Shown here: positions 10,045-64,000 of the stretch, piece after piece
How the letters are laid out: every line of letters begins with the position of its first letter
Position numbering within the stretch: position 1 is the stretch's first letter
Assembly: GCA_017406805.1 (NCBI GenBank)
Contig: JAFQXU010000001.1
Location: 7,423-71,422, forward strand
Direction of reading: 5' to 3'
Origin: Clostridia bacterium
GTDB taxonomy: Bacteria; Bacillota; Clostridia; Oscillospirales; Acutalibacteraceae
Length of the DNA: 64,000 nt
Position numbers and translations under genes: made by a program
The notes under the pieces: model-generated
What the model saw: only the letters and a program-made list of their open reading frames with translations
Databases searched by the model: none
What the model was told of the DNA's origin: nothing

Positions 10045-10120
<76 letters not shown>

Positions 10121-10126
10121 AAAACG

Positions 10127-23008: not shown

Positions 23009-23024
23009 TTCTTACTCACCTCTT

Positions 23025-24056
23025 TTATTTATAGAAAAACGGCGGATATTCATCTAAATCTCCCCGTAAGTACCTTGCTAACAACAATGCTTGTGCATAC
23101 GGCATTAGGCCCCATGGTAATTTCTCCCTTAAATAAGGGTGCAATATTTCTTCTTGAATTCTTTTATGCCATGATGACAAAATAGTTTTCCTGGTCTCAT
23201 CATCCATAATAACGGCTCCACTTTCTTTTTTGAGAAATCCTTTAGACTTTACAACTTGTTTATTAATCATACTGATAACAAACCTATCCGCCAAAACACT
23301 TCTGAATTCCTCCATTAAATCAAGCGCCAAAGACACTCTTCCTGGTCTGTCCGTATGAAAAAAACCTACATATGGGTCCAGCCCAACAGATTCAAGCGCC
23401 GAAACACAAATGCTTATAAGAAGCGTATACGAAAACGACAATAATGCGTTAACATTATCAAGCGGAGGTCGCCTGGTTCTTCCTTTGAAATAGAACTCTT
23501 GCTTTTGATTAAGTATTAAATCATTAAAGCACGAAAAATATATACTCGCACAATTACCTTCAAAACCCCTTAAAGTATCATGTGAATTCACTATTCTTAT
23601 TTTATTCAGATAATCACCCAAAATCTCAGATTTAGAATTCAAATTATCAATATCAAGTCTTAAGGGATAATCACGAACCGCTCGCTTAATGACAGCCATT
23701 GAATTATATACTTTCCCAGTGATAAAATTTCTTGATATCGCAATACTTCTGATAGGATCATCTGAAATTCTATACTGTTCTTTTCTAAGAAACACGTTAC
23801 CATTTATTTTTCCGACAACCCTAGATAAAAATTTACCACTTTGTGATAAAAAAATTATACTTACTCCTCTTTCGGAACATGCATTCATCAATGCAGGACT
23901 AGCACCGGTATACCCAAATGTTACAATCGATTCAAAATTATGGATCGGGAACTTAGAAATTAATTCATTTTCACGCCGTATACAAATACATTCTCCGTCT
24001 AAAGATAAATATACATCAGGAGAAGTGATAAAAAGAGTATTAAGTAATTTTCTCAT
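23025..24056 (-). CDS. cas1: CRISPR-associated endonuclease Cas1 (I-C type)
   Basis: 343 aa with a Cas1 pattern (LNTLFITSPDVYLSLDGE..., FHTDRPGRVSLALDLMEEFR). Confidence 0.9.
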   Translation of the reverse strand: MRKLLNTLFITSPDVYLSLDGECICIRRENELISKFPIHNFESIVTFGYTGASPALMNACSERGVSIIFLSQSGKFLSRVVGKINGNVFLRKEQYRISDDPIRSIAISRNFITGKVYNSMAVIKRAVRDYPLRLDIDNLNSKSEILGDYLNKIRIVNSHDTLRGFEGNCASIYFSCFNDLILNQKQEFYFKGRTRRPPLDNVNALLSFSYTLLISICVSALESVGLDPYVGFFHTDRPGRVSLALDLMEEFRSVLADRFVISMINKQVVKSKGFLKKESGAVIMDDETRKTILSSWHKRIQEEILHPYLREKLPWGLMPYAQALLLARYLRGDLDEYPPFFYK

Positions 24057-24720
24057 TTTTATTATCTCCTCCCTTTATAAAATTTTCAATGTAGCTTTTT
24101 ACAGATTTATCACTGCAAACTTTAGGTAAACACAAATCTTTCAACGAACAAGAATTACAATGTTTACTAGTTTTTACTTTCGGCGTATATTTTCGTTGAT
24201 ACATTACATGCATCTCAGATAGAATATCTTTAAACTCGTTTCTAAGTTCTTCATCAATAAAGACTTTTTCACGATGTTTTATTTCCACATAGTAAATATA
24301 CGCCTCCGAAATATCACAACAAAGCATTTCTTCTAAACATAACGCTTGTGCACAAAGCTGAAGTCTATCGCAATTTCTTCTTTTCGGGCCACCTTTTTTG
24401 TATTCCACTGGTACCACTTTATAAAAACCTTCTAAATCATTAACCTGTACGCCATTTTTATTTTTCTGAAATTCTACAATATCACATTCACCCGATATTC
24501 CAAGCTTTCTTGAAAAAATAGGCATACCTCGAACAATTACAACGTTTTTCCTGAACTCCCTAAAGAATTTATCGTGAGCTTTTTCGTGGGCAATGTGGCC
24601 TTTTACCGTATGATAGTTTTCGCCCCACTGATTTTCTACATGTATAAGTGCCCACTGTCGCCGACAAAACGAAAAATGCTGAATTCCCGAAATTTGCAAA
24701 AAATCTTCTTCACTAAACAT
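24040..24720 (-). CDS. cas4: CRISPR-associated exonuclease Cas4
   Basis: 226 aa with N-terminal ISGIQHFSFCRRQWALIHVE and a C-terminal CxxCxxxxxC cluster (CNSCSLKDLC). It overlaps cas1 by 17 nt. Confidence 0.9.
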   Translation of the reverse strand: MFSEEDFLQISGIQHFSFCRRQWALIHVENQWGENYHTVKGHIAHEKAHDKFFREFRKNVVIVRGMPIFSRKLGISGECDIVEFQKNKNGVQVNDLEGFYKVVPVEYKKGGPKRRNCDRLQLCAQALCLEEMLCCDISEAYIYYVEIKHREKVFIDEELRNEFKDILSEMHVMYQRKYTPKVKTSKHCNSCSLKDLCLPKVCSDKSVKSYIENFIKGGDNKNEKIT

Positions 24721-24729
24721 AAATATGTA

Positions 24730-25620
24730 CTATTTTATTTCGAAAATCTCAGGTTCCACATCGCAATTTTCAGGTTTTGTATAAGTAAACTCATAATCAT
24801 CTATACTCGTAGGTAATTCCTTGCACCTATCAGATTTTAGTTTTGCCTCTATGCTACCATGAATTTGAGCCGTTGTAACTTTTGGGGTTTTACAATTGTG
24901 TTTCCACCAATAAAACCTGCATACTTGCATAGTTCCTTCAGGGCGCGCAGATGATGAGTCATTTTCAAATAGAGTTTTTAAAGCCTCTTTTATTTTTAGT
25001 GCATCATCGTAAGTAAAACCAGTTTTTTCTGCGAGTTGACAATTTATGCTTCCTTTAATCTTATAAAGTCCAAAACGAACAAAATGTTTCATACCCATTG
25101 TATCCGGCGATTTTCCGCCATCTTTTGTCGGATCACCGTTAACACTTTTTGTTATCTGTATACTTTGTATATCAACACTGTTCACGCTAATTGCTTGATG
25201 AACCGAAACAGGTCCACGAACACCTATTGAAACATTACCCGATTTAAACGCAAAAACTTGTCCGAAACTTCTTACATCTATCCATTTTTCGCAAGTATAC
25301 TTCACCAACTTGTCTTCATCAAAATTTTTTTCTTTCTTCTCTGTTAATTCTGAAAACTCCTTTTTTGCACTGTCAAATCTTTCGGACAAACTCGTAAATC
25401 CGTCATCTGATCTTTCCTCCATTTTAACAAAGATGTTTTCGCCCATATCTTGAAGTCGGTTTCTAATTTTTCTCTTTATGCATACATCAGAAATTTCACC
25501 CAAATCATCAAGAGTTTGTCTGGGCCTGTTTCCGTTTAAAGGATCTCCATTAGGATTTGCATTTGTAGCTGATACAAACATTACAAAATCAATTTTGTTT
25601 CTTAAAGTTTCATTATTCAT
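24730..25620 (-). CDS. cas7: Type I-C Cas7 (Csd2)
   Basis: NANPNGDPLNGNRPRQT...ISDVCIKRKIRNR is the Csd2 pattern. ATG at 25620 follows GGAG and lies one nt after the cas8c stop. The track start at 25647 is less likely. Confidence 0.9.
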   Translation of the reverse strand: MNNETLRNKIDFVMFVSATNANPNGDPLNGNRPRQTLDDLGEISDVCIKRKIRNRLQDMGENIFVKMEERSDDGFTSLSERFDSAKKEFSELTEKKEKNFDEDKLVKYTCEKWIDVRSFGQVFAFKSGNVSIGVRGPVSVHQAISVNSVDIQSIQITKSVNGDPTKDGGKSPDTMGMKHFVRFGLYKIKGSINCQLAEKTGFTYDDALKIKEALKTLFENDSSSARPEGTMQVCRFYWWKHNCKTPKVTTAQIHGSIEAKLKSDRCKELPTSIDDYEFTYTKPENCDVEPEIFEIK

Positions 25621-25621
25621 T

Positions 25622-27529
25622 TTAATCGTCTCCTTCTGTATTTTCATTATTTTTAATATTTAAAGCTATCATCTGGCAGTGATATCCAAGTAAATAAAGC
25701 CCATCAAGTTTTTTGTCATTTTTATAATCTTCAGTTTTAAATTTACTATGTATCAAATCTAGCAAGTTACCGTAATATGCCCTTGACCCTGATGAAAGTG
25801 AAACCAAATAAGGTCTCAATCTTTTTTCTATAATTTCCCAAGTTTTAAAAGGCCTTTGCGAAAAAGCGCTCATATATCTTCCTGCATTCGTTTCATTCAC
25901 ATTCTTATCATTTTTCTTGTATTGTGCCGCTTTTTCTATCTTGTCGGCAACAGCCAAAAGCCTTCCGTAAAGATAATTTCTGTCTGTTATATTTTCGTCT
26001 AATGCCATTTTGTATTCCCCCTTATTATTTTCAAACCAATATTTTTTTACACACGAACACGTTGCCCGCAAAACAGATTCCCAATTAATATAACTTTTAT
26101 AACACTGCCTATTCGAAGCTTTATAAATAAGCTGTTCTACTATAGATTTAGGAATTTTTTTACCTTCAATTACGCAAGGCAACAATTTTGCCACTGTTAC
26201 CCCGAAAAATTTATCTTTCTCGATTTCTATAAAACCATTTTCTCTCTCATTTCCATAAGCGTACTTGACTATATCTAAAATTGATGGCATACCTTCAAAA
26301 ATTATTTTCTTGGATTTTTTAGAATTTTTGTCTTCTTTAATATATTTAAAATGCTCCCAAAAACCTTCTTTATGCCATTTTAAGATATTGTCAAGATACT
26401 CCTCCGTTAGAATCTCACGATAATATCTTATTGACATTCTTCCCTTACCAGGCGCTTCCAAAATTAAAATATTCATTTTTGCAATACCATTTTTTAAGTC
26501 TTTGCGAGGTGCTTTTAGAGTTTTTGCCGCTTTCATAAAGTCATCCAAGTAAACTTTATTTCCGGTGGAGTAGCTTTCAAAATTATTTTCATATATACCT
26601 AATGTGCTTTCCCATGGACGATTAGGAACCTTTTTAGAAAAAATCTGATTTTCCCATAAAACAAATTTTGATTCCCCTATTGTAAAACCCTGGTTTTCAA
26701 TAAGCCACTTAAGCGCAAGGCTAAATTTTTGGTTAGCGTGAATACCAATGCTAAAAGCTTCACTATCATTTAAAAATCTTCCACGATATGTAAAGTTAGT
26801 ACCATCATTTGCAGAAATAAGCTTTGAATTACCTAAAAATTTAAAAAAGTCTTTAGTTGCTAAATCTTCATTTCCCATAATATAGCAAATTTCTTTAAAC
26901 TCATTTTGCCCTAAAACACAGTTTTCATAATAATCCGTATATCGCTTTCTGACCACCTTATTCTGCCAAAGCTCGTCACTTTCTCCGTCATCTTTTGATA
27001 AATTATCGCTTCTATCTTTATTGCCGACCACCTCAAAAAGTAAAAACCACTTCTTATTTAGATCCAAACCTGTGTTTTTTATATCTTCTTTTAAAGTTCC
27101 GCATTTTATGTATTTAAGTAAGGAATTTATTTTCGGATGACTGTAATCAGAATTACACCAATTTTCAAGGTTCTTAATGTATTTTCCCATACCTTCTTTA
27201 TTATTTTCAAAATCAAAATACTCCAACAAATCAAAAACAGCATGCATCGCTTTTTGAGCTTTTTTGCCTGATCTTGCAAACGATTTACCGTTTACCGGAA
27301 TTATTATAGACTTATCCTCTTTTCTTTTTCCTACATGAATTTTTTGCCCTTCTTCTTTACTTCGCGAAAATTGCTCAGCACTTATAAAATATCCATCCTC
27401 ATTTAATGTAACAACCAGCAAAGGATCATTATTTACCGATTTATAATCATGATACAGCGGAGGCAAAGTAGAATTTTTATCATTTATTTGCTTATCATAG
27501 AATTCTATTAGATTTTTAAAAAGCCCCAT
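25622..27529 (-). CDS. cas8c: Type I-C Cas8c (Csd1) large subunit
   Basis: About 635-aa ORF in the canonical position between cas5 and cas7. ATG at 27529 lies 6 nt after AGGAGG. Confidence 0.85.
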   Translation of the reverse strand: MGLFKNLIEFYDKQINDKNSTLPPLYHDYKSVNNDPLLVVTLNEDGYFISAEQFSRSKEEGQKIHVGKRKEDKSIIIPVNGKSFARSGKKAQKAMHAVFDLLEYFDFENNKEGMGKYIKNLENWCNSDYSHPKINSLLKYIKCGTLKEDIKNTGLDLNKKWFLLFEVVGNKDRSDNLSKDDGESDELWQNKVVRKRYTDYYENCVLGQNEFKEICYIMGNEDLATKDFFKFLGNSKLISANDGTNFTYRGRFLNDSEAFSIGIHANQKFSLALKWLIENQGFTIGESKFVLWENQIFSKKVPNRPWESTLGIYENNFESYSTGNKVYLDDFMKAAKTLKAPRKDLKNGIAKMNILILEAPGKGRMSIRYYREILTEEYLDNILKWHKEGFWEHFKYIKEDKNSKKSKKIIFEGMPSILDIVKYAYGNERENGFIEIEKDKFFGVTVAKLLPCVIEGKKIPKSIVEQLIYKASNRQCYKSYINWESVLRATCSCVKKYWFENNKGEYKMALDENITDRNYLYGRLLAVADKIEKAAQYKKNDKNVNETNAGRYMSAFSQRPFKTWEIIEKRLRPYLVSLSSGSRAYYGNLLDLIHSKFKTEDYKNDKKLDGLYLLGYHCQMIALNIKNNENTEGDD

Positions 27530-27546
27530 TTTCATCCTCCTTTCTC

Positions 27547-28284
27547 TTATGAATTTAATGAATTAATTTCTTCTTCTACATTCTTAAAATTTTCATCTAA
27601 CCCAAACTTCTTTATGCTCATTTTTCTTATATGCCTTTTTTTCTCTACTGAATTTGGCTCTGGAAACTCAATTATTCCATTTTTCATTTTGCAATGCCAA
27701 AACCTAACCGTCATATAATCCTTATCTTCCGACAAAAACGCTTCATCAGGGTAAGTTATACCATGAAACATATTGCCGAAGTCAATTGGTTCACTATCAT
27801 ATTCGTAAAAACTTTTCACTGTTTCAAAATTGCACGGCTTTACATATCCTGAACATTCACGAGTCCCTAAAAATATATCCCGTCTGCCTCCTCTTTCGAG
27901 TGCTCTTTTCGCCATAAAATAATGCTTGTCCTCTATGCGATCTTTTTTCAGTTCAGGCCGATTTGTGTTCCAAACAAAATGTGCTTCTACGACATATCTC
28001 ACGTCTTTTAAGTATGTATAAAACGACCTATCACACACACTGCTGTCATTATATTTCATAGTTCGTATACTTTTAGATTCAGTTTTAATAGGATTCAAAA
28101 CTTTTACTCTGTCTATAATCCATATAATAGTCGGTTTCCAGTAGATACTGTGCAAAATCCCTTTCAAAGCCTCATAAGTAGGAACATAATGGGAATTCTT
28201 TTCTCCACCTACTCTTGTAATAGGGTCTGAGAACAATGCATAATCCCCGTAAATTTCAAATTCCAAGGTGTTCTTTTTTTTCAT
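27547..28284 (-). CDS. cas5: Type I-C Cas5d (pre-crRNA processing subunit)
   Basis: LEFEIYGDYALFSDPITRVGGEKNSHYVPTYEALKGILHSIYWKPTIIWIIDRVKV is the Cas5d pattern. ATG at 28284 lies 8 nt after GGGAG. Confidence 0.9.
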   Translation of the reverse strand: MKKKNTLEFEIYGDYALFSDPITRVGGEKNSHYVPTYEALKGILHSIYWKPTIIWIIDRVKVLNPIKTESKSIRTMKYNDSSVCDRSFYTYLKDVRYVVEAHFVWNTNRPELKKDRIEDKHYFMAKRALERGGRRDIFLGTRECSGYVKPCNFETVKSFYEYDSEPIDFGNMFHGITYPDEAFLSEDKDYMTVRFWHCKMKNGIIEFPEPNSVEKKRHIRKMSIKKFGLDENFKNVEEEINSLNS

Positions 28285-28315
28285 TTTATCATCTCCCTTC
28301 AAATATAATTTTCAT

Positions 28316-30679
28316 TTAAATTATCCATGTTTCGCTATCACTTTCCTCACTGCTAACTCCAAATATTTCATTATAATTTCTTTCTGATAATATATTTACA
28401 CTATAGTTTTCATTTAAATATCTGGGGTCATAATCCAAATTCTTATATTCATTTTCATAAAGACTCACGGTATATCTCTGCAACTTCTTAATTATCTTCA
28501 TTTTTTCAAAAAAATTCTTATCCGCATAAAGCTCCGCTATTAATTTTCCGGAATCCTTATAGTAAACTATAAAATCCTCTTTTTCGCCGTCTGTAATAAC
28601 CTCAAATTCTCTTCCAGCAGTTTTCGGAGCTTGCATCATAAATGGCTCGATTTTGTTTTGCCTTACAAATTCATTATGGCAATCATTTGTATTTACCGAT
28701 AAAAGCTCTAGAATACTACTGTTAAATTTACTATTATTTATCGGGTAAGTCATTTCACCTCTTCTTGAACCAAAATACTCATTATAATATTTATCCATAA
28801 TTTCTTTTGAAAAAATATACTCATTATTTTCTTCTATCTTCTTTTTAAACAGATGAAAAATATTTTGGCTTTTTCTTTTTCCGAATTTTATATCTTCAAG
28901 AGACCCCAAATTTTCAAATTCTTCAAAAAACTTAACTACATAAAGTTTCCCTTTTTTGGGAGCATATTCATTGTTACGATTGCACCTACCACAAGACTGA
29001 ATAATACTATCCATACCGCACATAGAACGCACAACAGTCTGAAATGAAATATCAACACCCGCCTCAATAAGCTGTGTACTTACACATATAATTTTTTCGC
29101 CGCCTTTAAGGGATTGTCTTATATGATTTTCCAAAACATCATTTCGATGTTGCGCACACATGTTTGTACTCAAATAATAAACTTTATAATCACTGAATTC
29201 CCGGTTCAACTTCTTGTAAATTTTCAAAGCGCATTTTTTGGTGTTTACTATTATCAAACAATTTAAATCTATTTTATCTTTTATAAAATTGGTAAATTCA
29301 TCTTCATTTTTGAAAATATCATTTACTAAATGCGAGGATACCCTGGTAGGTAATTTATCTAAATGAACATCAATACTTTTTATATCTTGTATTTTATAAC
29401 TAAGCTCATCAAAAGGCGGTTGAGTTGCCGAACACAAAACCACGTCCGCGTCACAAATTTTTGACAGAAAATTAATTGCCAAATTAAAAATATAAGTACA
29501 CTTTATTGGCAAAAATTGAATCTCATCTATTATAATTACTGAATTACTTAAAGTATGGAATCTCTGTATATCTTCACGCCTTCCTCCAAAAAGGCAATTT
29601 AAAAATCGTACCGCAGATGTAGCAATTACCGGACTATCCCAATTTTTAATTTTACATTCATATGTTTCATTTGCTGTTTTATCGCTTTCGTCACTAATTA
29701 CATTGCAATGATGTTCCAAAACATTTTCATCTCCAGCAACATCTTTCAAATCTTTAGCGTTTTGTTCCAAAATAGAATTAAAAGGCGCTATATAGAAAAT
29801 ATGATCTTTATTTTTTCGTCTGCATTTTTCAATCGCAAATCTTAGCGAACTCAAAGTTTTCCCCATCCCTGTAGGAACAGCCAATCTATAAATATTAGGC
29901 TTTTTATCTTGCGATGCTTCAAAACATTTATTTGAAATCTCGGAACGTAAATTGTCTATTTCTGTTTTATTTTCAAACATATTCAGTTTCTTATTTAATT
30001 TTTGGCTAAATTTATTCCATGTCTCTTTCTTGCTATCTTTAGAAACAAAATCTATACCATTTTCGAAGTTTGCGGCATCTGTACCATCAGCATCAATTAG
30101 CACTGACATCAAATACCTTGCAATCATGTTTATATAAAAATCACATTCCAGCTTTGATATATTTGAAAACTTTTCTTTAACATTTAAAAATAATTTTTCT
30201 ATATCTTTACAAATATTTATAACCTTTTCTTCAAGTTCAGATTTGCTCATTTGCTTATCAAAAAAGCACTTACAAATATTGTCACAATCGTAATTTTTTC
30301 TGAAATCCATAATCCTATCTTCTTGCCTAACATGAAAATCATTTGGCGAGACAAAATCATCAATCCCATGGTGGCACATAACTACATTATTTATTAATTC
30401 TCTTACCAATGGATAGTACTTATCCTCAATATTCAAATCATCAAAAATAAGCCCCGAAGCAATGGCGTGTTTTACACTTCCACGTTTTAAACAGTCGCCT
30501 TCTTCAATGTATTTTTGAAACTTTTCGGAATACTTGCCTACATCGTGAACCGCTCCTATCAATTTAACAATCTCATTTAAACACTTAATCCCATTTAAAC
30601 TATACGATATTTTTGCAACATTTTTACAGTGCTCATCTACACTTTGTAACCTATCATTATATTTATGCGCTATATACAT
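28316..30679 (-). CDS. cas3: Cas3 helicase-nuclease (HD plus SF2 helicase)
   Basis: N-terminal HD motifs (VDEHCKNV..., GAVHDVGKYSEKFQ), Walker A PTGMGKT, DEIQ box. 787 aa. Confidence 0.92.
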   Translation of the reverse strand: MYIAHKYNDRLQSVDEHCKNVAKISYSLNGIKCLNEIVKLIGAVHDVGKYSEKFQKYIEEGDCLKRGSVKHAIASGLIFDDLNIEDKYYPLVRELINNVVMCHHGIDDFVSPNDFHVRQEDRIMDFRKNYDCDNICKCFFDKQMSKSELEEKVINICKDIEKLFLNVKEKFSNISKLECDFYINMIARYLMSVLIDADGTDAANFENGIDFVSKDSKKETWNKFSQKLNKKLNMFENKTEIDNLRSEISNKCFEASQDKKPNIYRLAVPTGMGKTLSSLRFAIEKCRRKNKDHIFYIAPFNSILEQNAKDLKDVAGDENVLEHHCNVISDESDKTANETYECKIKNWDSPVIATSAVRFLNCLFGGRREDIQRFHTLSNSVIIIDEIQFLPIKCTYIFNLAINFLSKICDADVVLCSATQPPFDELSYKIQDIKSIDVHLDKLPTRVSSHLVNDIFKNEDEFTNFIKDKIDLNCLIIVNTKKCALKIYKKLNREFSDYKVYYLSTNMCAQHRNDVLENHIRQSLKGGEKIICVSTQLIEAGVDISFQTVVRSMCGMDSIIQSCGRCNRNNEYAPKKGKLYVVKFFEEFENLGSLEDIKFGKRKSQNIFHLFKKKIEENNEYIFSKEIMDKYYNEYFGSRRGEMTYPINNSKFNSSILELLSVNTNDCHNEFVRQNKIEPFMMQAPKTAGREFEVITDGEKEDFIVYYKDSGKLIAELYADKNFFEKMKIIKKLQRYTVSLYENEYKNLDYDPRYLNENYSVNILSERNYNEIFGVSSEESDSETWII

Positions 30680-31515: not shown

Positions 31516-31868
31516 TGGTGGAGGCGAGGGGAATTGAACCCCTGTCCGAAAAACAGACTATTTAAGCTTTCTACGAGTGTATCTAATGATCATTATTTCC
31601 CCATAAAGCAAGTTCATTAGAAAACTTGAGCTGCAGGTATTCTCTAATTCATGACCAAAGCCGAGAACATCTTTGATTCACGTTCACCGCTAATTCGTCA
31701 TCTTACAATAGTCGCGGTTACCTAAAGTAAAATGTCTGCCTATTTAATTAAGCAGCAGCTAATTCTGTTGTGTTTCCGTTTAATTGGAAAGTTGTGACTT
31801 TTAAAGCAGTTCCACATTGCTACTCGCTTACTTAAACTTCTATTCCCCGTCGAAGCCGTTACGCCCCC
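31516..31868 (-). ncRNA. ssrA: tmRNA (SsrA)
   Basis: The minus strand starts GGGGGCGTAACGGCTTCGACGGGG and ends GGACAGGGGTTCAATTCCCCTCGCCTCCACCA. An internal tag frame reads ...GNTTELAAA-stop. Confidence 0.93.
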
Positions 31869-54002: not shown

Positions 54003-55226
54003 ATGAATATCTATCAAGAATTAAAGCAAAGAGGTTTAATAGCTCAGGTAACCAACGAAGAAAATGTGGAAAAGCTATTAAATAGTGAAAAAGTACCTTT
54101 TTACATTGGATTTGAACCCACGGCAGATTCCCTGCACGTTGGACATTTTGTGCAAATTTTAATTATGTCAAGACTGCAAAAAGCAGGACATATCCCGATA
54201 ATACTCTTTGGCGGAGGTACGGGGTTAATCGGCGACCCTTCCGGCAAAACAGACATGAGAAAAATGCTTTCAACCGAAACGATTGATCATAACATAAAAT
54301 GTTTTATTAAGCAAGCCTCCAAATTCTTGGATTTTTCACCCGGAAAAGCCATTATAGTAAATAATGCAGACTGGCTGAGAAATCTTAATTATATAGACTT
54401 TTTAAGGGAAATAGGGGTGCATTTTTCCGTTAACAGAATGCTTGCCGCAGAATGCTATAAACAGCGCTTGGAAACAGGGCTAACATTTTTTGAACTCAAT
54501 TACATGCTAATGCAAAGCTACGATTTTTTGGTACTAAACAGAAAATACGGATGCAAGTTAGAGCTTGGCGGAGATGACCAATGGAGCAACATAATAGGCG
54601 GAGTGGAACTTGTAAGAAAATGTGACAGAAAAGAAGCTTACGGCCTAACCTTTAAACTTTTAACCACAAGCGAAGGCAAAAAAATGGGCAAAACCGAAAA
54701 AGGAGCTCTTTGGTTAGACTCAGAAAAAGTATCCCCTTATGATTTTTATCAATATTGGAGAAACGTCGGTGACAAAGACGTAATCAACTGTTTAAATATG
54801 CTCACGTTTATACCGGTTGAAAAAATAAAAGAATATGAAAAATTGGAAGGTCAAGAATTAAACAAAGTTAAAGAAATTTTGGCTTTTGAAGTAACAAAAC
54901 TCGTTCACGGCGAAGAAGAAGCCACCAAAGCAATGAACACAGCCAAAGCGTTATTTTCTGCAAGTGAACAATCGGAAGAAAATATGCCAAAATTCCAAAT
55001 TAATTCTGAAATGCTAACAGATGGCAAAATAAACATTCAGCAATTATTGGTAGTATCAAGTTTGGCGCCATCTAAAAGTGAAGCAAGAAGGCTTATTACT
55101 CAAGGCGGAATTTCAGTAGACGGAGAGAAAATAACAGATATAAACCACAGTATAGTATTAGATCAATTAGCAAACGGAATAGTAATTAAAAAAGGCAAAA
55201 AAGTTTACAAAAAAATATACATCTAA
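54003..55226 (+). CDS. tyrS: Tyrosine--tRNA ligase
   Basis: HIGH-type motif (SLHVGHF), KMSKS-type motif (KKMGKT), and a C-terminal S4 domain. Confidence 0.95.
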
Positions 55227-55233
55227 AAAGCCA

Positions 55234-55266
55234 AAAAGCTTCGGATAAAATCCGAAGCTTTTTTAG
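55234..55266. terminator. Bidirectional terminator
   Basis: Stem AAAGCTTCGGA/TCCGAAGCTTT flanked by A- and T-runs, between convergent genes. Confidence 0.8.
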
Positions 55267-55277
55267 TTTAAGCAAAT

Positions 55278-55607
55278 TTAAAGTATATTATCGTTATTTT
55301 GAGGTTTAAATATGGTAGGACCTTTTTTCATATTCTTATAGAATTTCATAGCTGAAAGCGCTTTAGCACCAACTGATACTCCGCCGCCAACATAGCTAAG
55401 CATTTCTTTGTCAAGCTCAGTTATATCTGTGTCGTATTCACCTTGGCTACTGTTGAGAAAATCAAGAAATTCATCACGAGTATAACCATCTTCAACACTT
55501 AAGCAAAAATCATACACATCATCGTACGTTTCTTTCTTCGCAAGCTCTTTCATCAAATCTTCTCTTTCCAGAACAGCTTCAATCATCTTATTGATATTGG
55601 TCACCAT
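55278..55607 (-). CDS. Nif11-like leader peptide family precursor (GG-type cleavage motif)
   Basis: 109 aa from ATG 55607, which lies 5 nt after GGAGGGG. The leader MVTNINKMIEAVLEREDLMKELAKKETYDDVYDFCLSVEDGYTRDEFLDFL...ITELDKEMLSYVGGG is Nif11-like, followed by a basic core of about 33 aa. Confidence 0.6.
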   Translation of the reverse strand: MVTNINKMIEAVLEREDLMKELAKKETYDDVYDFCLSVEDGYTRDEFLDFLNSSQGEYDTDITELDKEMLSYVGGGVSVGAKALSAMKFYKNMKKGPTIFKPQNNDNIL

Positions 55608-55629
55608 AAAAACCCCTCCAAAACAAATT

Positions 55630-58029
55630 CTATTTAAATTCAGCTTTAAATACATATTTTTTATAAACAGGATCTTTTATAACAAAAAATTTATTGTTGG
55701 TGTCTTTTCTGGCTCGTATTTCTTCTTCCGGATTGATTTCTTGCAAGTCATATTTTTTGTAAACATCAGTTTTTACGTAAATATCACTTTCTTCTTCAAA
55801 GTTTATATCTTCTTCTTCGTCAGAGGTAACATTTTCAAGTTCATACTTTTTATATTTATCTCCAACTTTAACGTATAGACCTTTTCTGTCTTTTTTGGCA
55901 ACTTTTTCTTCTTCGGAAGAAACATCCAACAATTTATATTTCTTGTATTCGCCACCAATTTTAACATAGAGGTTTTTGTTTTGCAAGATATAATTTTGAT
56001 CTTTTAAAATTAACTCTTTTTCTTCAGGGGTAATATCTTCTAGTTTGCGTTTTTTGTAGCCTTGAAGTTTTACGTATAGTTTTCCGCCCAATTTACTGCT
56101 AATATGTTTCTTAGCTATTTTTTCTTCTTCCGGAGAAAGATCGAGAAGTCTATACTTTTTATATTCTTTATTAATTTTCACATATTGCTTGAAATCTTTA
56201 TCATTTTTAGCAATTTCAATTTCTTCAGGCTCAATATCATCTAATTTATACTTATAAGCACCGCTTATAAGTTTATAGTTTTTCCCTTCTTTATCTTCTT
56301 TTGCGGCTTTTAATTCTCTATTATTGATGTCTCTTAATACAAATTTTAGTACTACATCTTTACCATTTGCATTTTTGAAATCTTCATTGCTCTTGCCTGA
56401 CAAGAATCTGGTTATTACCGAAGATGCTTCGCCGAATAAATAATTTAACAAATGCCTTGCGCCTTCGCCGTAAGCTCTGGTTTTTTGGGCTAAAGCTTCA
56501 ATTGTTTCATCATCCACTATCAGATTGATGCCACCGCAATCTTCGTGTGCAAAATATTCTTTAAGAACAGGTATAAACTGAGAAGATGCGATATCTTTAT
56601 ATGTTTGTATCGGTAAATTTTCAAATTCTACAAGTCTAATTCTATTAGTAAAAGATTTATCATGAATATGTTCTGTTAAAGAATCATCCATTTCTTCTTC
56701 ACCAGATTGATTAAGTGATGCTTTTGTTTCGTTTGAAGTTAATATGAACGTAATTCCGGAACAATCTAACTCTTGATTGTATACAAGGACTTTACCGTTA
56801 TCTATTATTCCCCTCATAACTTCATCTAAAGAATCATCGTAAAACTTATCATATTCATCGATAATAACTATTCCATTAGGATGATTTTGTATATAGCGGT
56901 ACAAACTGCTCTTCATCTTTTTAGCACCACCATCTCCGAAACCAAAATCGGCAGCTTTTGGCCCAAATATTTGAGATACAAGCGATTCTTCCTTGTTTTT
57001 AAGGTCAACATCGGAAGAACTCATAAAATAAGGCTCCGCGTCACTTCCTAATATTTTATACTTTGCCAAACCTTTTGCAGCGTAGGATTTACCCACACCT
57101 GAAGGCCCAATAAAGTAAAGTACATCACCATGAGAATAAGTTTCTCCGCGGCGTCTTGCCATATCTTTTTTAGTAACTATATCATTTATATGTGTTCTAA
57201 GTTTTTCTTTTGCCTCCTCTTGACCTTTAAAGTCTTTAAACAACAGTTCCAGACTTTCACTGCTACTTTTCGGGTTAACCGGCAAACTTGGGTATAGTAT
57301 ATTATCTAGTTTTGTCTTAATTTTATCATATGCGGTTCCAAAAAATCCATAAGGGCTAATAACTTTTTGAATATCTTCACCCAGTTCACCCGCACTGCTA
57401 AAAAATGACTTGATACCACTCAAAAAGAAACCACCTACAGACGCACCGACCATCATTGAACTGATAACCGGATTTTTATCACAAAAATTAAAAAAAGTAT
57501 TTATAATATTATTAGAACACCTATCACTATTATCAGTTCTTTGCACATCAGCAGGTTTATGACCTTCTTTATTCGGAATGAACGTAGGGTTGTTACCATT
57601 ACCAAAGTCCACAAAACAACCACCTAGCTCCGAATCATATTCTTTTTTATAGCTGTGTGTTTCGGATTTGTTGTCTTTATTATCTGCACCGGATTCTTTA
57701 TCATCCGCATTTTCCTTTGGAGGTTCGGGATCTTTATTGGGTTCAGTTGGTTCATTGGATTTTTGACGATATTTATAAAAACCATAACCGCCAACACAAC
57801 ATACCACAACCGCTAAAGCAGCTGCTGCAATAAATTTCCACTTATGCTTTTTAACAAAATCCCAGGCCTTTCCTGCAAAACTTTTTTCTCCTTTGCTGGT
57901 AGACGTCGAAACACTACTTGACACACTTGTTTCTGCGGCGTATACATTAATATTGCCCGAATTTAATGGTGACGATGTAGTAAGCGTCAAAACAGCCAGC
58001 GTACAAGCTAAACTTTTTTTGAAATTCAT
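55630..58029 (-). CDS. Membrane-anchored AAA+ ATPase (ClpA/B D2-like, AAA_2-type) with a C-terminal tandem repeat array
   Basis: Signal-like N-terminus, a TM (FIAAAALAVVVCCVGGYGFY), a Pro/Asp/Lys-rich linker, Walker A GPSGVGKS, Walker B IVIIDEYDK, then seven 17-36 aa repeats. Confidence 0.7.
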   Translation of the reverse strand: MNFKKSLACTLAVLTLTTSSPLNSGNINVYAAETSVSSSVSTSTSKGEKSFAGKAWDFVKKHKWKFIAAAALAVVVCCVGGYGFYKYRQKSNEPTEPNKDPEPPKENADDKESGADNKDNKSETHSYKKEYDSELGGCFVDFGNGNNPTFIPNKEGHKPADVQRTDNSDRCSNNIINTFFNFCDKNPVISSMMVGASVGGFFLSGIKSFFSSAGELGEDIQKVISPYGFFGTAYDKIKTKLDNILYPSLPVNPKSSSESLELLFKDFKGQEEAKEKLRTHINDIVTKKDMARRRGETYSHGDVLYFIGPSGVGKSYAAKGLAKYKILGSDAEPYFMSSSDVDLKNKEESLVSQIFGPKAADFGFGDGGAKKMKSSLYRYIQNHPNGIVIIDEYDKFYDDSLDEVMRGIIDNGKVLVYNQELDCSGITFILTSNETKASLNQSGEEEMDDSLTEHIHDKSFTNRIRLVEFENLPIQTYKDIASSQFIPVLKEYFAHEDCGGINLIVDDETIEALAQKTRAYGEGARHLLNYLFGEASSVITRFLSGKSNEDFKNANGKDVVLKFVLRDINNRELKAAKEDKEGKNYKLISGAYKYKLDDIEPEEIEIAKNDKDFKQYVKINKEYKKYRLLDLSPEEEKIAKKHISSKLGGKLYVKLQGYKKRKLEDITPEEKELILKDQNYILQNKNLYVKIGGEYKKYKLLDVSSEEEKVAKKDRKGLYVKVGDKYKKYELENVTSDEEEDINFEEESDIYVKTDVYKKYDLQEINPEEEIRARKDTNNKFFVIKDPVYKKYVFKAEFK
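55633..56280 (-). repeat. Coding tandem repeat: seven units of consensus YVK-x-G-x-YKKY-x-L-x-D-[IV]-[ST]-P-EEE...
   Basis: The last 216 aa of the AAA+ ORF split into units of 32, 36, 36, 31, 32, 32 and 17 aa with recurring YVK...YKKY...EEE. Confidence 0.8.
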
Positions 58030-58205
58030 TTTTTTCTCCTACTTTCTTTAGTATTTTAATTAAAATTAATTTTTAATTAATATCGCAATTACAATTATAT
58101 CATTTTATTGTAATAATGTCAACAAATAATTTAAAAAAATATTGTAACCATTTTTTTAAATTTGAAATAGTATGTAATGTAAATACTAAAAGGAGGAATT
58201 AATAT

Positions 58206-58334
58206 ATGTGTAACAACTTTTTTGGCGGAAACAACTGCTGCTTCATCATCTTACTTATCATTATAATTTTATGCTGTTGCGGCGACGACAGCTGCGGCTG
58301 CAATAACGGCTGCGGTTGTGGTTGTGGGGGCTAA
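58206..58334 (+). CDS. Unannotated 42-aa Cys/Gly-rich tiny TM peptide (YjcZ/tiny_TM_bacill-like)
   Basis: ATG lies 7 nt after AAAGGAGGAA. The product is MCNNFFGGNNCCFIILLIIIILCCCGDDSCGCNNGCGCGCGG. A strong terminator follows. It is too short for the ORF track. Confidence 0.6.
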   Translation: MCNNFFGGNNCCFIILLIIIILCCCGDDSCGCNNGCGCGCGG

Positions 58335-58425: not shown

Positions 58426-58511
58426 GCCGGTGTGGCGGAATGGCAGACGCGACGGACTCAAAATCCGTTGTTGGCAACAACGTGTGGGTTCAAGTCCCAC
58501 CACCGGTACCA
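58426..58511 (+). tRNA. tRNA-Leu (anticodon CAA)
   Basis: GCCGGTGTGGCGGAATGGCAGACGCGACGGACTCAAAATCCGT... has a long variable arm, T arm GTGGGTTCAAGTCCCAC and an encoded CCA. Confidence 0.93.
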
Positions 58512-58517
58512 TGCTGG

Positions 58518-58553
58518 GTAGTTATAAGGGGCATGGATATTTCTTATAACTAC
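58518..58553. repeat. Perfect 11-bp inverted repeat (GTAGTTATAAG-14 nt-CTTATAACTAC) between the tRNA-Leu 3' end and the recombinase stop
   Basis: Read directly from the sequence. No T-run follows on either strand. Confidence 0.8.
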
Positions 58554-58585
58554 TCAAGGCTATAAAGGGCAGAGAATGTATTGTT

Positions 58586-60334
<1,749 letters not shown>

Positions 60335-60372
60335 TCATTATACTAAACTTTTTTGGCCTCATGAAGCCCAAT

Positions 60373-60534
60373 TTAATGAGGTTTTCGGCGAATCTCCGAT
60401 ACTAATAAATTTTTTATTTTTTCTTTTAAGCTTTCGCCTGTTTTATCAAAATAAGAATTAATTAAATATGTTGTTTTCCCAACTTGCACTTTGCTTTCCG
60501 TTGGGAATGATATTAATTTAAATGAATTTACCAT
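60373..60534 (-). CDS. TnpW-like small transposon-associated protein (unannotated, 53 aa)
   Basis: ATG at 60534 lies 9 nt after GGAG. The product is MVNSFKLISFPTESKVQVGKTTYLINSYFDKTGESLKEKIKNLLVSEIRRKPH. The pattern resembles small TnpW-type ORFs found upstream of serine recombinases in Clostridial elements (from memory, not searched). Confidence 0.4.
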   Translation of the reverse strand: MVNSFKLISFPTESKVQVGKTTYLINSYFDKTGESLKEKIKNLLVSEIRRKPH

Positions 60535-60570
60535 TTGAAAATTCTCCTTAAAAAGTTATACTATCTTAGC

Positions 60571-60690
60571 CCTTCGTAATAATAAAAACGAAGGCACACG
60601 AATTTCACGTCCCCACAGCCTGTGGGGCCACCCTCATTGCCTGCGACGGTTTTTTCACGCTCGGACTGTGACTGAGTGGGAGTAGCTTTA
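60571..60690. other. GC-enriched structured non-coding island (candidate ncRNA or protein-binding DNA site)
   Basis: Hairpin CCTTCGT/ACGAAGG at 60571-60594 and a 17-nt palindrome CCCCACAG-C-CTGTGGGG at 60611-60627. There is no start-codon-initiated ORF in any frame. Its composition stands out from the AT-rich flanks. Confidence 0.4.
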
Positions 60691-60817
60691 ATTGTTACTA
60701 AGATTTTTTATTCAATTGTCAATGTTCTCGGAAGAGTATAATTATTCTTCCACTTATATAAAGAGTGTTTTTAGCTTATTTTTGGCACCCTATTTTTAAA
60801 AAAACTTTTCGACAAAT

Positions 60818-61213
60818 TTAGCGTTCCATAAGTTTTCTTAATTTTTTGAGAATGCGATTAAATCGTTTCCCAATATTTTGATGTGAAATATTATAACTTT
60901 CAGCCAACTCTCGCTGCGTTTTACACTCTTTAACTATGTAGCTAATAAATATTTGGTCTTCGATTTTCAAACTTTTTAATGCTTTATGTAAATTTTCATT
61001 CTCAACAAGTTCAATCCAGCCAAGTAAACTTGTTTGAAACAACTGCTTGTTCACATCAGACGTATTTGAAAATTCATCATACATAACTTCTTCAATTGGA
61101 ATTTCGTATTCATTTATTTTTGACCTCTTGATGTTGTCTTTTAAATCCATGTTTTTTATTACCTTGTGAAAATATGCTATTTTATTTTTTATATTGTCAT
61201 GATGGCTTCCCAT
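60818..61213 (-). CDS. Sigma-70 region-4-like helix-turn-helix protein
   Basis: 131 aa. The C-terminal LKIEDQIFISYIVKECKTQRELAESYNISHQNIGKRFNRILKKLRKL is a region-4-type HTH. RBS GGAGG. Confidence 0.6.
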   Translation of the reverse strand: MGSHHDNIKNKIAYFHKVIKNMDLKDNIKRSKINEYEIPIEEVMYDEFSNTSDVNKQLFQTSLLGWIELVENENLHKALKSLKIEDQIFISYIVKECKTQRELAESYNISHQNIGKRFNRILKKLRKLMER

Positions 61214-61321
61214 AAACCATTACCTCCGAATTATTTTTAGATTTCTAAATAATTCGAATGGCTATGGATATCTTGCAAAGTAGAGAAACCACCGCTCCAT
61301 AGGCTTGTCCCCAATGCAACC

Positions 61322-61364
61322 TAAAAAAAGCGCAGAGTTCTACACCGGAAGTGCAAAACTCTGC
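61322..61364 (-). terminator. Strong rho-independent terminator on the minus strand with no ORF upstream of it
   Basis: Minus-strand stem GCAGAGTT/AACTCTGC followed by GCTTTTTTT. Confidence 0.75.
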
Positions 61365-61925
61365 TTATCAAATTAAGTATTAAAAATGCTCTGCATAATA
61401 TAAAGCCAATTTGCAAAGTATTTATATGTATGAAAATTTATTCTTGCAAAGCATTTAAGACATCATATTTTAAATTCCCCTTTTCAAGTGTCAATACCTA
61501 ATTTTTTATAGGTTACGCACTTTCTTTGATTATTTTTTAGCAGGCAAATTAAAAAAGCTTAGCCTACTTGGCTAAATTTTAGATCAGGTAATAATGTAAG
61601 CTGTGTCGCAGTATGGCTGGGGTTTTCAGGAAGTTTTTATCGTACTTTGCGGTTTTTAAAAGTATTTAAGATTAAAAAGTAAAAATAAACATAAAAAATG
61701 AAACTCATCTAAAGTTTCATTTCAAAAAAGGTGTATATTTTCACATGATAAAAATGCATGCAATCATTTTTGATTTTTATAGTATTAAATAGGAATATGA
61801 ATGTATTGTAAGTGCATGATGTGAAGGTAATCGTTTTGTACTCTATGTTTTTATATTTTTGACATTTTCTCTACTGTTTTAGATTTATATAAGTTTTTCG
61901 ATATAAATTAAATTTTTATTTGGCG

Positions 61926-63053
61926 TCAAGTCAACATATCCATTATTTTGTCTTGAGTATAGTGATAGAATTTAATATTTCGGTATGCATCATGTTTAAA
62001 ATGGCGACGGAATAACGAATAAATTTTTTCGACAGAAATATTTTTTGGTTTTAGTCTGTATCTACCTACAAGGGGCGTCATTATTGAAATCGGAATTTTA
62101 TTGATCTTGGTATATTCCAATAGTTTTTCGAATGTTTTAATTCTGTTTTGTGATTCAGTTCGTTCCATTTCGTTTGCGTAATCATAGTAGAAAAAAGGTT
62201 TTAAAAAGTGGTATCCCAAAATAATTCTTGTTGGTTTAGGTGTACTTACACGAATACGGCGTAACGATTTACTACCAGATGGCAGAATCATAACTAATCG
62301 CCATTCATTTTCATATTTCCAAGTGGTCGCCTTATTAAGAGCAGTGCATAAGACAGATGCTTCAATATGGTGTTTGCAAATTTTGTTTCTATCATCTTCA
62401 ATCAAATCCTTTATATCTATGGGGGCAGATGAATATGCAACAGGAAATAGCATTTGACGTTGTAGTCGGTTTACATTTTTATCATTAAAATCATATTCAA
62501 CGCACATACCTGTATTTGAACTGGCGTAGTGAGACCACATAAGTGTAGAATTGTTTTTTAAAGATAGACATACCGCATAAGTTCCCAGATAATCTAACAG
62601 TCTGAATTTCATTCGCGACTCAGTTTTATAACGATTAGAACGCCTATTAACGTATTCATCATGTTTAATTAAGTTGTCGGGAAGATTAAAGGCGGTTATT
62701 AAGCTTTTCATTTCGTTCCAGTCCGATTTGGCAGCTTTGTTTCTTTCTTTTTCCGAGCCGTAATAATGTATTGTGCCATCAAACAGATCATTGAAGTCAC
62801 CTATGCGCGTTGCATACAAAAAACCATTTATTAAGTTGTCAATAGTACGGTCCGATAAAGACTGATATTTATACAATTTGGGTATATTGGTTTTGAATGA
62901 GTAATAAGGATTATTTGTACCCTTTGCTATACGTTGTTCCACAAAATTACGAAAATCCGCATCTTGTATGATATCAGAATATGTCAACAAAACATCATTC
63001 TCCTTTTTTAGACACCAATATTGTTTTTCTGTCATAATTTCTATAATTTGCAT
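61926..63053 (-). CDS. DUF2971 family protein
   Basis: KLYKYQSLSDRTIDNLINGFLYATRIGDFNDLFDG and STLMWSHYASSNTGMCVEYDF match my recollection of DUF2971 signature blocks. No clear RBS is present. Confidence 0.6.
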   Translation of the reverse strand: MQIIEIMTEKQYWCLKKENDVLLTYSDIIQDADFRNFVEQRIAKGTNNPYYSFKTNIPKLYKYQSLSDRTIDNLINGFLYATRIGDFNDLFDGTIHYYGSEKERNKAAKSDWNEMKSLITAFNLPDNLIKHDEYVNRRSNRYKTESRMKFRLLDYLGTYAVCLSLKNNSTLMWSHYASSNTGMCVEYDFNDKNVNRLQRQMLFPVAYSSAPIDIKDLIEDDRNKICKHHIEASVLCTALNKATTWKYENEWRLVMILPSGSKSLRRIRVSTPKPTRIILGYHFLKPFFYYDYANEMERTESQNRIKTFEKLLEYTKINKIPISIMTPLVGRYRLKPKNISVEKIYSLFRRHFKHDAYRNIKFYHYTQDKIMDMLT

Positions 63054-63129
63054 AAGGGAGGCAAAAAAGATGTGGTAATATTCGGTATCTGATTTTTTTG
63101 GAAATAAAAAGATAATTGTTTTATATCTT

Positions 63130-64000
63130 TTATAAATTAATTTTATTTATTTCTTTTGCTATCATTTTAATAATCGGCACGCAAACCGAATTACCGATTT
63201 GTTTATAGGCACTTTTTAACGGTATATCTGCAATTTTAAAATTTTTTGGAAATCCCATTAAAGCCAAACATTCGTTAGGAGTTATTGTTCGAATTCTGTA
63301 GTTATCTTTTATTATGGGTACTCGGTCGTTCCATGTACCCATATTTGCTTTTAAGGTAAATGATATTTCGTCTTTACCTGATTGAATGCCGTAGTCTGAA
63401 AAACGGTATATTTGGTTGTTATCTTTAATGGCTTTTATCATTTTGTTGTATTGAGGTGTATTTTCGGAAAGATAAAAACACTTATCAGCTTTAATGGATT
63501 TATCGATTAAATCAAATATACGTTTTTTTAACTTGATTTTTTCGGGAAAGCGGTACGATTCACACTGGTTGAAACTTTGAAATGCAATCAAATAAGTTCT
63601 TGTACGATGTTGAGGAATACCATAATCGCAAGCATCGGCAACCAAATAACGCAAATAATAATCTCTGCATACCAGCTCATTATGAATAACATTAAATGTG
63701 CGTCCTTCATCGTGCTTGACAAGATTTGCAACATTTTCAAGGAATATGATTGAAGGTTGAATTACATCAACAATACGCATTATTTCAAAAAACAGGTTAC
63801 CTCTGCTATCGTTAAAACCTTTTTGATTTCCGCAAACCGAAAAAGATTGACAAGGAAACCCTGCTGTAATAACATCCACTTTCGGAAGCAATGTGGCATC
63901 TATCGTTCGTATGTCATTTTCAAATAATGTAGTTTCAGGAAAATTTAGTCTGTATGTTTTACAAGCCTCTTTGTCTATTTCGTTTGCCCAAACAATATCA
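63130..64000 (-). CDS. dcm: DNA (cytosine-5)-methyltransferase, C-terminal about 290 aa (N-terminus beyond the window edge)
   Basis: Motif IV ITAGFPCQSFS, motif VI FLENV, and a C-terminal QIGNSV. The frame stays open upstream of 63891 to the window end (DIVWANEIDKEACKTYRLNFPETTLFENDIRTIDATLLPKVDV). Confidence 0.9.
   Translation of the reverse strand, partial: DIVWANEIDKEACKTYRLNFPETTLFENDIRTIDATLLPKVDVITAGFPCQSFSVCGNQKGFNDSRGNLFFEIMRIVDVIQPSIIFLENVANLVKHDEGRTFNVIHNELVCRDYYLRYLVADACDYGIPQHRTRTYLIAFQSFNQCESYRFPEKIKLKKRIFDLIDKSIKADKCFYLSENTPQYNKMIKAIKDNNQIYRFSDYGIQSGKDEISFTLKANMGTWNDRVPIIKDNYRIRTITPNECLALMGFPKNFKIADIPLKSAYKQIGNSVCVPIIKMIAKEINKINL

Follow-up and report, generated by a model that had tools for sequence, protein, structure and literature searches.

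A stretch of 64,000 nucleotides from a Clostridia bacterium of the family Acutalibacteraceae (assembly GCA_017406805.1, contig JAFQXU010000001.1, positions 7,423 to 71,422; hereafter the window, whose own numbering is used throughout) contains a pair of adjacent genes, one coding for an AAA+ ATPase of 799 amino acids (aa) with predicted membrane segments, and the other, a small open reading frame (ORF), for a protein of 109 aa whose N-terminal part resembles a double-glycine (GG) leader. An earlier note, made by a model from the sequence, had proposed this pair as a peptide-handling module. The reading that we favour, with a probability of roughly 0.55, is that the two genes are neighbours by common descent and do not form a module of precursor and handler. 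The pair arose by tandem duplication and reduction, the leader is native to the AAA+ family as its N-terminal module, and the small protein represents a stand-alone version of that module kept by selection. Since tandem duplication and reduction account for the pair, its adjacency needs no functional explanation.

The locus is laid out as follows, in the direction of transcription of the pair:

58094-58122, minus strand: promoter of the AAA+ gene, TTGACA-17-TGnTATAAT (TG-extended), with 12 of 12 consensus matches
58036-58040, minus strand: ribosome-binding site of the AAA+ gene, AGGAG
55630-58029 (stop codon included), minus strand: AAA+ gene, 799 aa
55958-55986, minus strand: candidate own promoter of the small ORF, TTGCAA-17-TGtTAAAAT, inside the 3' end of the AAA+ gene
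55613-55619, minus strand: ribosome-binding site of the small ORF, GGAGGGG
55278-55607 (stop codon included), minus strand: small ORF, 109 aa, a truncated orthologue of the partner gene described below
55233-55263, both strands: bidirectional intrinsic terminator with a 14-bp stem, common to the small ORF and tyrS
54003-55226: tyrS, convergent with the pair

The small ORF starts 22 nt past the stop codon of the AAA+ gene on the same strand, and no terminator lies in the gap. Its 109-aa start was preferred over a 125-aa start because the homologues all begin MV(S/T)NI. At the gathering threshold, Rfam models matched only the transfer-messenger RNA (tmRNA) and transfer RNAs (tRNAs), and no leader RNA near the AAA+ locus. 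The 22-nt spacing, the strong GGAGGGG site and the single terminator that the pair has in common with convergent tyrS had all been described in the earlier note, and were found as described.

Both proteins are built from discrete segments:

57934-58029, minus strand: signal-peptide-like N-terminus of the AAA+ protein, aa 1-32 (basic n-region, hydrophobic core, VYA/AE)
57775-57843, minus strand: transmembrane helix TM2, aa 63-85, behind the basic amphipathic stretch KAWDFVKKHKWK (from hydrophobicity; AlphaFold places helices at 51-91)
57400-57774, minus strand: low-complexity linker rich in Pro, Asp and Lys, aa 86-185, and Gly-rich hydrophobic segment, aa 188-210
56350-57282, minus strand: AAA+ module, aa ~250-560, from AlphaFold, Foldseek and hidden Markov models (HMMs)
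55633-56277, minus strand: C-terminal array of ~7 repeats of ~33 aa, YVKxGxxYKKYxLxDxxxEEE, beta-hairpin plus helix
55380-55607, minus strand: Nif11-like leader domain of the small protein, aa 1-76 (four helices, acidic disordered linker, L-7/V-4/GGG)
55281-55379, minus strand: basic tail of the small protein, aa 77-109 (helix AKALSAMKFYKNMKK, then GPTIFKP)

Homologues of the AAA+ protein form 74 clusters and are hosted by gut Clostridia (Eubacteriales, Oscillospiraceae, Acutalibacteraceae). Forty-seven of these clusters carry an N-terminal leader of their own that resembles residues 1-76 of the small protein and ends in a strict L..(V/I)(S/A)GG motif. Directly past the GG follow a basic n-region, a hydrophobic core and an AxA-like end, which together have the look of a Sec signal peptide; next come a short loop, a basic stretch (SFWQRHKKK) with a transmembrane helix, a low-complexity linker, a Gly-rich hydrophobic segment and the ATPase. 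Leaderless members of the family (the window protein, P0007, P0028, P0062-70 and P0073-74) start 2-6 residues past the GG position, the window protein about 2 residues past where the GG would be. Its N-terminus resembles a signal peptide (MNFKKSLACTLAVLTLTTSSPLNSGNINVYA/AE), and this segment of aa 1-32 aligns with the stretch that follows the GG motif in the leader-bearing homologues. The ATPase gene of the window lineage has lost the leader, and its protein begins at the signal-like segment.

The origin of the small protein can be read from sister genomes (L013-15 and L011), in which a gene for a protein of 477-480 aa, here called the partner, lies directly downstream of the AAA+ gene; one such protein, P0090 from an Acutalibacteraceae metagenome-assembled genome, is annotated only as a hypothetical protein. 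By hhalign (99.7%, E 2.9e-26) the partner is paralogous to the AAA+ family; where Walker A would stand, P0090 has NGSKEKEW and the L013 copy NGAREKEW, and the partner is therefore a pseudo-ATPase. The small protein matches it with an E-value of 5e-32 in two blocks: residues 1-76 correspond to partner residues 1-76, and residues 77-102 (VSVGAKALSAMKFYKNMKKGPTIFKP) to partner residues 125-150, with the intervening partner residues 77-124, a signal-like segment plus spacer, missing. The tail is derived from the end of TM2 and the linker that stands just before the ATPase module. The small ORF ends at the boundary of that module and is therefore a cleanly truncated tandem paralogue with cytoplasmic-looking N-terminal parts only. 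Other short forms exist: P0098 (125 aa) stops directly behind IFKP and reads SAG where the GG would stand, and P0132 (144 aa) ends after FYKNLKQN, shortly past the same helix motif. Throughout the window lineage and the sister genomes, the AAA+ gene stands in synteny beside convergent tyrS-rpoB-rpoC.

Further rearrangements are visible at this position. At L011, three tandem family members precede tyrS (coordinates include L011 10001-12217, P0019, and L011 7855-9963): a 702-aa leader-AAA+ gene, a gene for a leader protein of 738 aa whose first AAA module is degenerate and whose second has GPSDSGKT, and one for a 479-aa pseudo-ATPase. The tyrS-adjacent AAA+ locus is a hotspot of duplication and decay. 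Between partner and tyrS, the sister genomes also carry a gene for a protein of 383-397 aa with a signal-peptide-like start (L013 13593-14744 (-); L011 13813-15006 (-)); the 383-aa form has no Pfam match, and the gene is absent from the window.

Homologues of the small protein fall into 12 clusters of 64-100% identity, with the frame intact in all. The leader ends in ...ELDKEMLSYVGGG, and behind it stands a 33-aa tail with a net charge of +5, in agreement with the earlier description of a GG-type leader end and a basic stretch of about 33 aa. Leucines at -12 and -7 and a valine at -4 precede the glycines, two of which are invariant in the 12 clusters; one cluster has IRGG. The AlphaFold model comprises four helices (residues 3-56, at a predicted local distance difference test (pLDDT) score of 80-86), a disordered acidic linker with the GGG, a helix at 79-95 and a disordered end, and a Foldseek search of the PDB with this model returned nothing meaningful (best E 2.5).

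Selection on the small ORF was assessed from the ratio of non-synonymous to synonymous substitution rates (dN/dS) among the window, L001 and L004, at dS ~1. The ratio is 0.12-0.21 for the whole ORF, 0.07-0.16 for the leader and 0.23-0.39 for the tail; for comparison it is 0.05 for tyrS, and the AAA+ gene, at 0.21, is under purifying selection as well. In a lineage represented by L004-L007, ~2.1 kb comprising nearly the whole AAA+ gene have been deleted and the small ORF is intact. Upstream, these loci are collinear with the window through a tRNA-Leu and a small Cys-rich ORF; the alignment then jumps to ~105 nt from the 3' end of the AAA+ gene, and the ribosome-binding site follows. The piece retained in L004 includes a promoter-like TTGAAA-17-TGtTAAAAT, against TTGCAA-17-TGtTAAAAT in the window. 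Purifying selection, a ribosome-binding site and a promoter-like site of its own, and survival where the AAA+ gene was lost show the small ORF to be functional. A second peptide copy at L004 was considered and rejected, as the first, 116-aa ORF there codes for an unrelated membrane protein.

Whether the leader is of Nif11 type, as had been claimed, depends on the method of comparison. The curated models TIGR03798 and PF07862 (NCBIfam, Pfam) gave no match at E<=1, either with the small protein or with ten leader-bearing AAA+ proteins. Direct HMMs for GG leaders gave sub-threshold matches limited to the GG region, among them Bacteriocin_IIc (PF10439; 14.3 bits against a cut-off of 27.1, E 0.041). 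A profile was then built from 30 leader domains; a word-indexed search with it yielded near relatives and fragments only, and an exhaustive search of 1.84 billion representatives (E<=1e-3) was hence made, which matched 567 cluster representatives with the domain N-terminal in every one. Five members with short cargo (P0175, P0185, P0221, P0161 and P0205) score 32.5-39.4 bits with TIGR03798, against a cut-off of 32.3; these short-cargo members also carry PF07862 and stand in tandem arrays. When the 12 window-type small proteins were aligned with these five by hhalign, the match covered the whole leader (97.8%, E 1e-12, 85 columns). It is by profile-profile evidence only, then, that the first 76 residues of the small protein are a Nif11-type double-glycine leader: the homology that the earlier label implied is borne out, and recognition by the curated models is not. 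The small gene is single-copy and its tail is conserved, with IFKP invariant, unlike the short hypervariable core found in paralogous arrays.

This leader is mostly found on large proteins. Among 194 leader proteins examined, 123 have a cargo of more than 200 aa, and in 100 of these 123 a hydrophobic segment follows right after the GG. About half of the long-cargo proteins (63 of 123) are AAA+ proteins; the leader is likewise found at the N-terminus of large non-ATPase proteins, among them UCH/USP peptidases and a protein with a Macro domain. In P0145, P0123 and P0178 (L025 7447-9171), a cassette of leader, GG, signal-like segment, basic stretch and transmembrane helix precedes a eukaryote-type UCH/USP domain (PF00443); P0145 has a Macro domain besides, and other members of the leader family have BNR/fn3-like repeats. 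No peptidase-containing ATP-binding cassette transporter (PCAT) lies near the L025 locus.

The AAA+ protein itself belongs with the second (D2) ring of the Hsp100 unfoldases. A signal-like N-terminus, a transmembrane helix, a linker rich in Pro, Asp and Lys, the motifs GPSGVGKS and IVIIDEYDK and a ClpA/B-D2-like core had been noticed earlier; all are present, and the assignment of the core is upheld by Pfam AAA_2 (E 6.6e-11), by structure and by HMM searches. The AlphaFold model, made with 29 homologues, is confident over residues ~250-560 (pLDDT ~90). Foldseek aligned it in the PDB with the D2 rings of ClpC, ClpA, ClpB and human Skd3 over ~330 columns at ~20% identity (E ~1e-13), and the family HMM matched solved structures of Hsp104, ClpC and ClpB nucleotide-binding domain 2 (NBD2) with E down to 5e-20. 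NCBIfam matches covered only the D2 part of ClpV1, ClpG and ClpX, far under their cut-offs, and no equivalog cut-off for ClpB, ClpA, ClpV1 or ClpX was reached (best ClpV1, 49.7 against 884.95 bits). There is a single AAA+ module, with one Walker A, D2-only matches and no D1 ring, and the N-terminal 250 aa consist of membrane segments and low-complexity linker, with no Clp N-domain. Walker A runs from aa 308 (K314) and Walker B spans aa 387-395 (E392); sensor-1 is N433 and sensor-2 is GEGAR (GAR). Across the family alignment the Walker A Lys, Walker B Glu, sensor-1 Asn and GAR sensor-2 do not vary. The module also has an aromatic pore-loop region, QIFG...FGFG. In the HMM alignment the family motif kHDkSFlNR lies opposite HFRPEFLNR of Hsp104, so that Asp457 falls in the Arg column, which we take to be the canonical position of the Arg finger.

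Two features are not in the earlier note. One is the third, Gly-rich hydrophobic segment at aa 188-204 (up to 210 in the list above). The other is the C-terminal repeat array, for which no Pfam match was obtained and beneath which Tandem Repeats Finder detected no DNA-level repeat. Its unit (YVKVGDKYKKYEL...) is present as one copy in the relatives P0008, P0010 and P0028, and at 5-7 copies only in the clade that has no leader on the AAA+ protein and a shortened partner gene.

Besides the AAA+ protein, the window ORFs of at least 600 aa code for GlmS, glutamine synthetase III, Cas8c, Cas3, PFOR, RpoB and RpoC, with no ABC protein, C39 peptidase or maturase among them, and within 10 kb at ~10 related loci there is no PCAT, C39 peptidase or maturase (LanM, radical SAM or cyclodehydratase). 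The earlier observation that the window has neither exporter nor maturase is upheld for these large ORFs. The pairing of AAA+ gene and small ORF is kept in the closest relatives, L001-L003, and is confined to one narrow clade. A profile search of genome contigs with the AAA+ alignment yielded at least three distant loci, and in distant lineages the AAA+ homologue is monocistronic among housekeeping genes and has no adjacent peptide. At these distant loci, recurrence of the family beside Nif11/GG peptides, which the earlier note had put forward as a check, was not seen. A part in anti-phage defence was considered and dropped, since PADLOC models matched neither protein of the pair, nor the partner, nor the leader proteins of UCH type.

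The favoured reading includes an inferred mechanism. The AAA+ protein would be a membrane-tethered, hexameric, Hsp100-like unfoldase or remodeller with its ATPase module in the cytoplasm, a sidedness that is assumed. The small protein would be a soluble cytoplasmic leader-domain protein that binds a factor recognising the leaders of the family. Most plausibly this factor would be a C39-type double-glycine peptidase encoded elsewhere, because the GG is strict and the leaderless homologues start right after it. The small protein may then act as a substrate, decoy or regulator of the leader-recognising factor, and not as cargo of the neighbouring ATPase.

Several points pull the other way. The promoter-like site at 55958-55986 is a consensus match only, and its conservation could be due in part to the overlapping AAA+ coding sequence. 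The deletion lineage may have an AAA+ paralogue elsewhere in its genome. Positive-inside charge counts for the AAA+ protein are ambiguous, as the flanks of TM2 conflict with those of the signal-like segment. The strict GG argues for leader cleavage, and the small protein could be an exported precursor. Finally, the complementary losses in the window lineage, of the leader from the ATPase and of the ATPase module from the partner, could be the mark of an obligate split complex.

The first of these two possibilities is unlikely but has to be taken seriously. A C39 peptidase or PCAT encoded elsewhere would cut after the GGG and export the 33-aa cationic peptide (VSVGAKALSAMKFYKNMKKGPTIFKPQNNDNIL) as a linear bacteriocin or signal, and the AAA+ gene would be an unrelated neighbour. 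Sequences homologous to the leader pass TIGR03798, disorder is predicted for the linker at the GG, and the hydrophobic residues at -4, -7 and -12 before the GGG fit the recognition element of LahT, which consists of the last 13 leader residues (PMC6363468). The small ORF moreover persists without the AAA+ gene and has a promoter-like site. Class IId peptides are cationic and free of Cys, and so is the tail. Yet no locus read has a PCAT or C39 gene nearby, the Bacteriocin_IIc match stays under its cut-off (E 0.041), and the related short form P0098 has SAG at the GG position. The supposed core is, furthermore, homologous to an internal segment of a 480-aa protein, and in this single-copy gene it is conserved (omega, that is dN/dS, 0.23-0.39; IFKP invariant), where a diversifying core would be hypervariable.

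A split-gene complex, in which the small protein supplies the leader domain in trans as an adaptor or regulatory subunit of the ATPase, in the manner of ClpA/ClpC N-domains and adaptors or of the Torsin activators LAP1 and LULL1, appears somewhat less probable still. By Rosetta-stone logic the union of leader and ATPase in one polypeptide in most homologues speaks for it, as do the complementary losses just mentioned and the placing of the genes 22 nt apart with no intervening terminator. The Asp that appears to occupy the canonical Arg-finger position in the family counts in its favour too, and the pairing of the ATPase with a degenerate AAA-like paralogue in the sister genomes is reminiscent of Torsin with LAP1. 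However, L004-L007 have lost the AAA+ gene and their small ORF is still under purifying selection, the small protein of the window has no pseudo-ATPase module such as a LAP1-like activator would need, and the partner shows no Arg at the corresponding position.

The earlier note's own proposal, which gives the AAA+ protein a dedicated role towards the downstream peptide as unfoldase, exporter, immunity factor or sensor, has become very improbable. The genes are adjacent and probably co-transcribed, the pairing is kept in L001-L003, and the Hsp100-type pore-loop region (QIFG...FGFG) would be suited to threading; but a pairing restricted to one narrow clade is accounted for by tandem paralogy, most homologues bear leaders of their own, homologues in other lineages stand unpaired and monocistronic, and the peptide persists where the AAA+ gene has been deleted. 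The small ORF demonstrably derives from a longer gene by truncation, which speaks for a relic of a decayed paralogue without function; this reading is hardly credible in view of the ORF's omega (0.12-0.21 at dS ~1), a frame intact across 12 clusters of 64-100% identity, a strong ribosome-binding site, a clean cut at a domain boundary, and the ends of P0098 and P0132 shortly past the same helix motif.

Common descent of the two neighbours, the reading preferred here, leads on to a broader and decidedly tentative proposal, which we regard as possible without expecting it: that in gut Clostridia the Nif11-type GG leader serves also as a removable module of general use at the N-terminus, directly ahead of a Sec-type signal or anchor, in full-size membrane enzymes that include ClpB-D2/Torsin-like AAA+ proteins, USP-type (UCH) peptidases and Macro-domain proteins. 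If this were true, it would imply a leader-dependent, C39-like step in the processing or trafficking of large proteins, and the window would represent a resolved state, in which a leaderless ATPase stands beside a free leader-domain protein that still engages the leader receptor. If the leaders are cleaved, the biology of double-glycine peptidases extends from peptides to proteins. Both building blocks, the Nif11-type leader and the AAA+ protein, are of known kinds, and it is their combination that is new. In the literature searched, neither this AAA+ family nor the occurrence of Nif11 leaders on large proteins is described, nor, as had been stated earlier, is a locus for a bacteriocin or a ribosomally synthesised and post-translationally modified peptide (RiPP) with this pairing; the wider family of Nif11-type leaders on large membrane enzymes of gut Clostridia appears to be undescribed.

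Other features of the window may be mentioned briefly. A complete type I-C CRISPR-Cas locus occupies 21969-30679 on the minus strand:

28316-30679, minus strand: cas3
27547-28302, minus strand: cas5c
25622-27535, minus strand: cas8c/csd1
24730-25647, minus strand: cas7/csd2
24040-24720, minus strand: cas4
23025-24056, minus strand: cas1c
~21980-22548: CRISPR array, at least 9 repeats of ~33 nt (ATTTCAATCCACGCACCCCGTAAGGGGTGCGAC) at a spacing of 66-69 nt

Upstream of the AAA+ gene, a Cys/Gly-rich ORF of 42 aa (58206-58334 (+)) has a hydrophobic core (MCNNFFGGNNCCFIILLIIIILCCCGDDSCGCNNGCGCGCGG), a strong ribosome-binding site (AAGGAGGAAT) and its own terminator, and its region is 88% identical at the nucleotide level in L004/L005. 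It has no Pfam or NCBIfam match and resembles the tiny YjcZ-like sporulation proteins. Next, 58426-64000 comprises a tRNA-Leu(CAA) followed by a large serine recombinase with DUF4368 (58586-60286), a small sigma-70-like protein (60818-61213), a DUF2971 protein (61926-63053) and a Dcm cytosine methyltransferase (63130-63891), and is probably a mobile element integrated at the tRNA-Leu(CAA); in L004/L005 the other side of the same tRNA-Leu carries different, phage-like genes (SSAP_Sak). A tmRNA with the tag peptide GNTTELAAA and adjacent tRNA-Thr/tRNA-Trp genes, at 31516-31868 (-) and 10045-10202 (-), are ordinary features.

Three known systems invite comparison. The Nif11-like (N11P) RiPP precursors, such as ProcA and LahA1-9, have, like the small protein, a helical acidic leader of ~75 aa with a GG end and hydrophobic residues at -4, -7 and -12. 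The small protein differs from them in scoring under both curated models, in being single-copy, and in having after the GG a conserved sequence that comes from a large protein; among the large ORFs of the window and at the loci read, there was no neighbouring PCAT, LanM or radical-SAM gene. Here, moreover, most of the proteins that carry the leader are 250-1000 aa long, and a signal-peptide-like segment follows it directly. For genome mining this means that a Nif11/GG-leader ORF beside an unusual enzyme does not necessarily mark a RiPP cluster; in the present case such an ORF descends, as a domesticated fragment, from the family of the enzyme itself. The leader-bearing family is widespread in gut Clostridia and uncharacterised; in it a RiPP-type leader stands before a signal-like segment on large membrane-tethered enzymes.

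With the second ring of the Hsp100/Clp proteins (ClpB/Hsp104 NBD2, ClpA/ClpC D2, ClpV/TssH and Skd3/CLPB), the AAA+ protein has in common the fold of the large and small D2 subdomains and the motifs. Unlike these proteins it has no D1 ring, Clp N-domain or middle domain, it would be anchored in the membrane by the signal-like segment and a transmembrane helix, and the HMM alignment suggests an Asp at the canonical position of the Arg finger.

The third comparison is with Torsin of the eukaryotic endoplasmic reticulum, which likewise has a signal peptide, a hydrophobic segment and a single ClpB-D2-like module; the canonical Arg finger is absent from Torsin and may be absent from the AAA+ protein. 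The likeness is one of analogy only: the Torsin model PF06309 gave no match at E<=1 to the window protein, and weak signals were seen in distant members (P0072, sub-threshold at E 0.0014; P0063, a precomputed match). Sensor-2 of Torsin is a Cys-containing motif, whereas that of the AAA+ protein is GAR, and the ATPase of the latter is presumably cytoplasmic. The arrangement in the sister genomes, where the ATPase is paired with a paralogue whose AAA-like domain is degenerate and unable to bind nucleotide, recalls Torsin with LAP1/LULL1; unlike LAP1/LULL1, the partner has no evident Arg finger, and its AAA-like domain has been lost from the copy in the window. A single-ring, membrane-anchored relative of the Hsp100 D2 module that is sometimes accompanied by a pseudo-ATPase paralogue may therefore offer a possible and tractable bacterial counterpart of the Torsin-activator arrangement.

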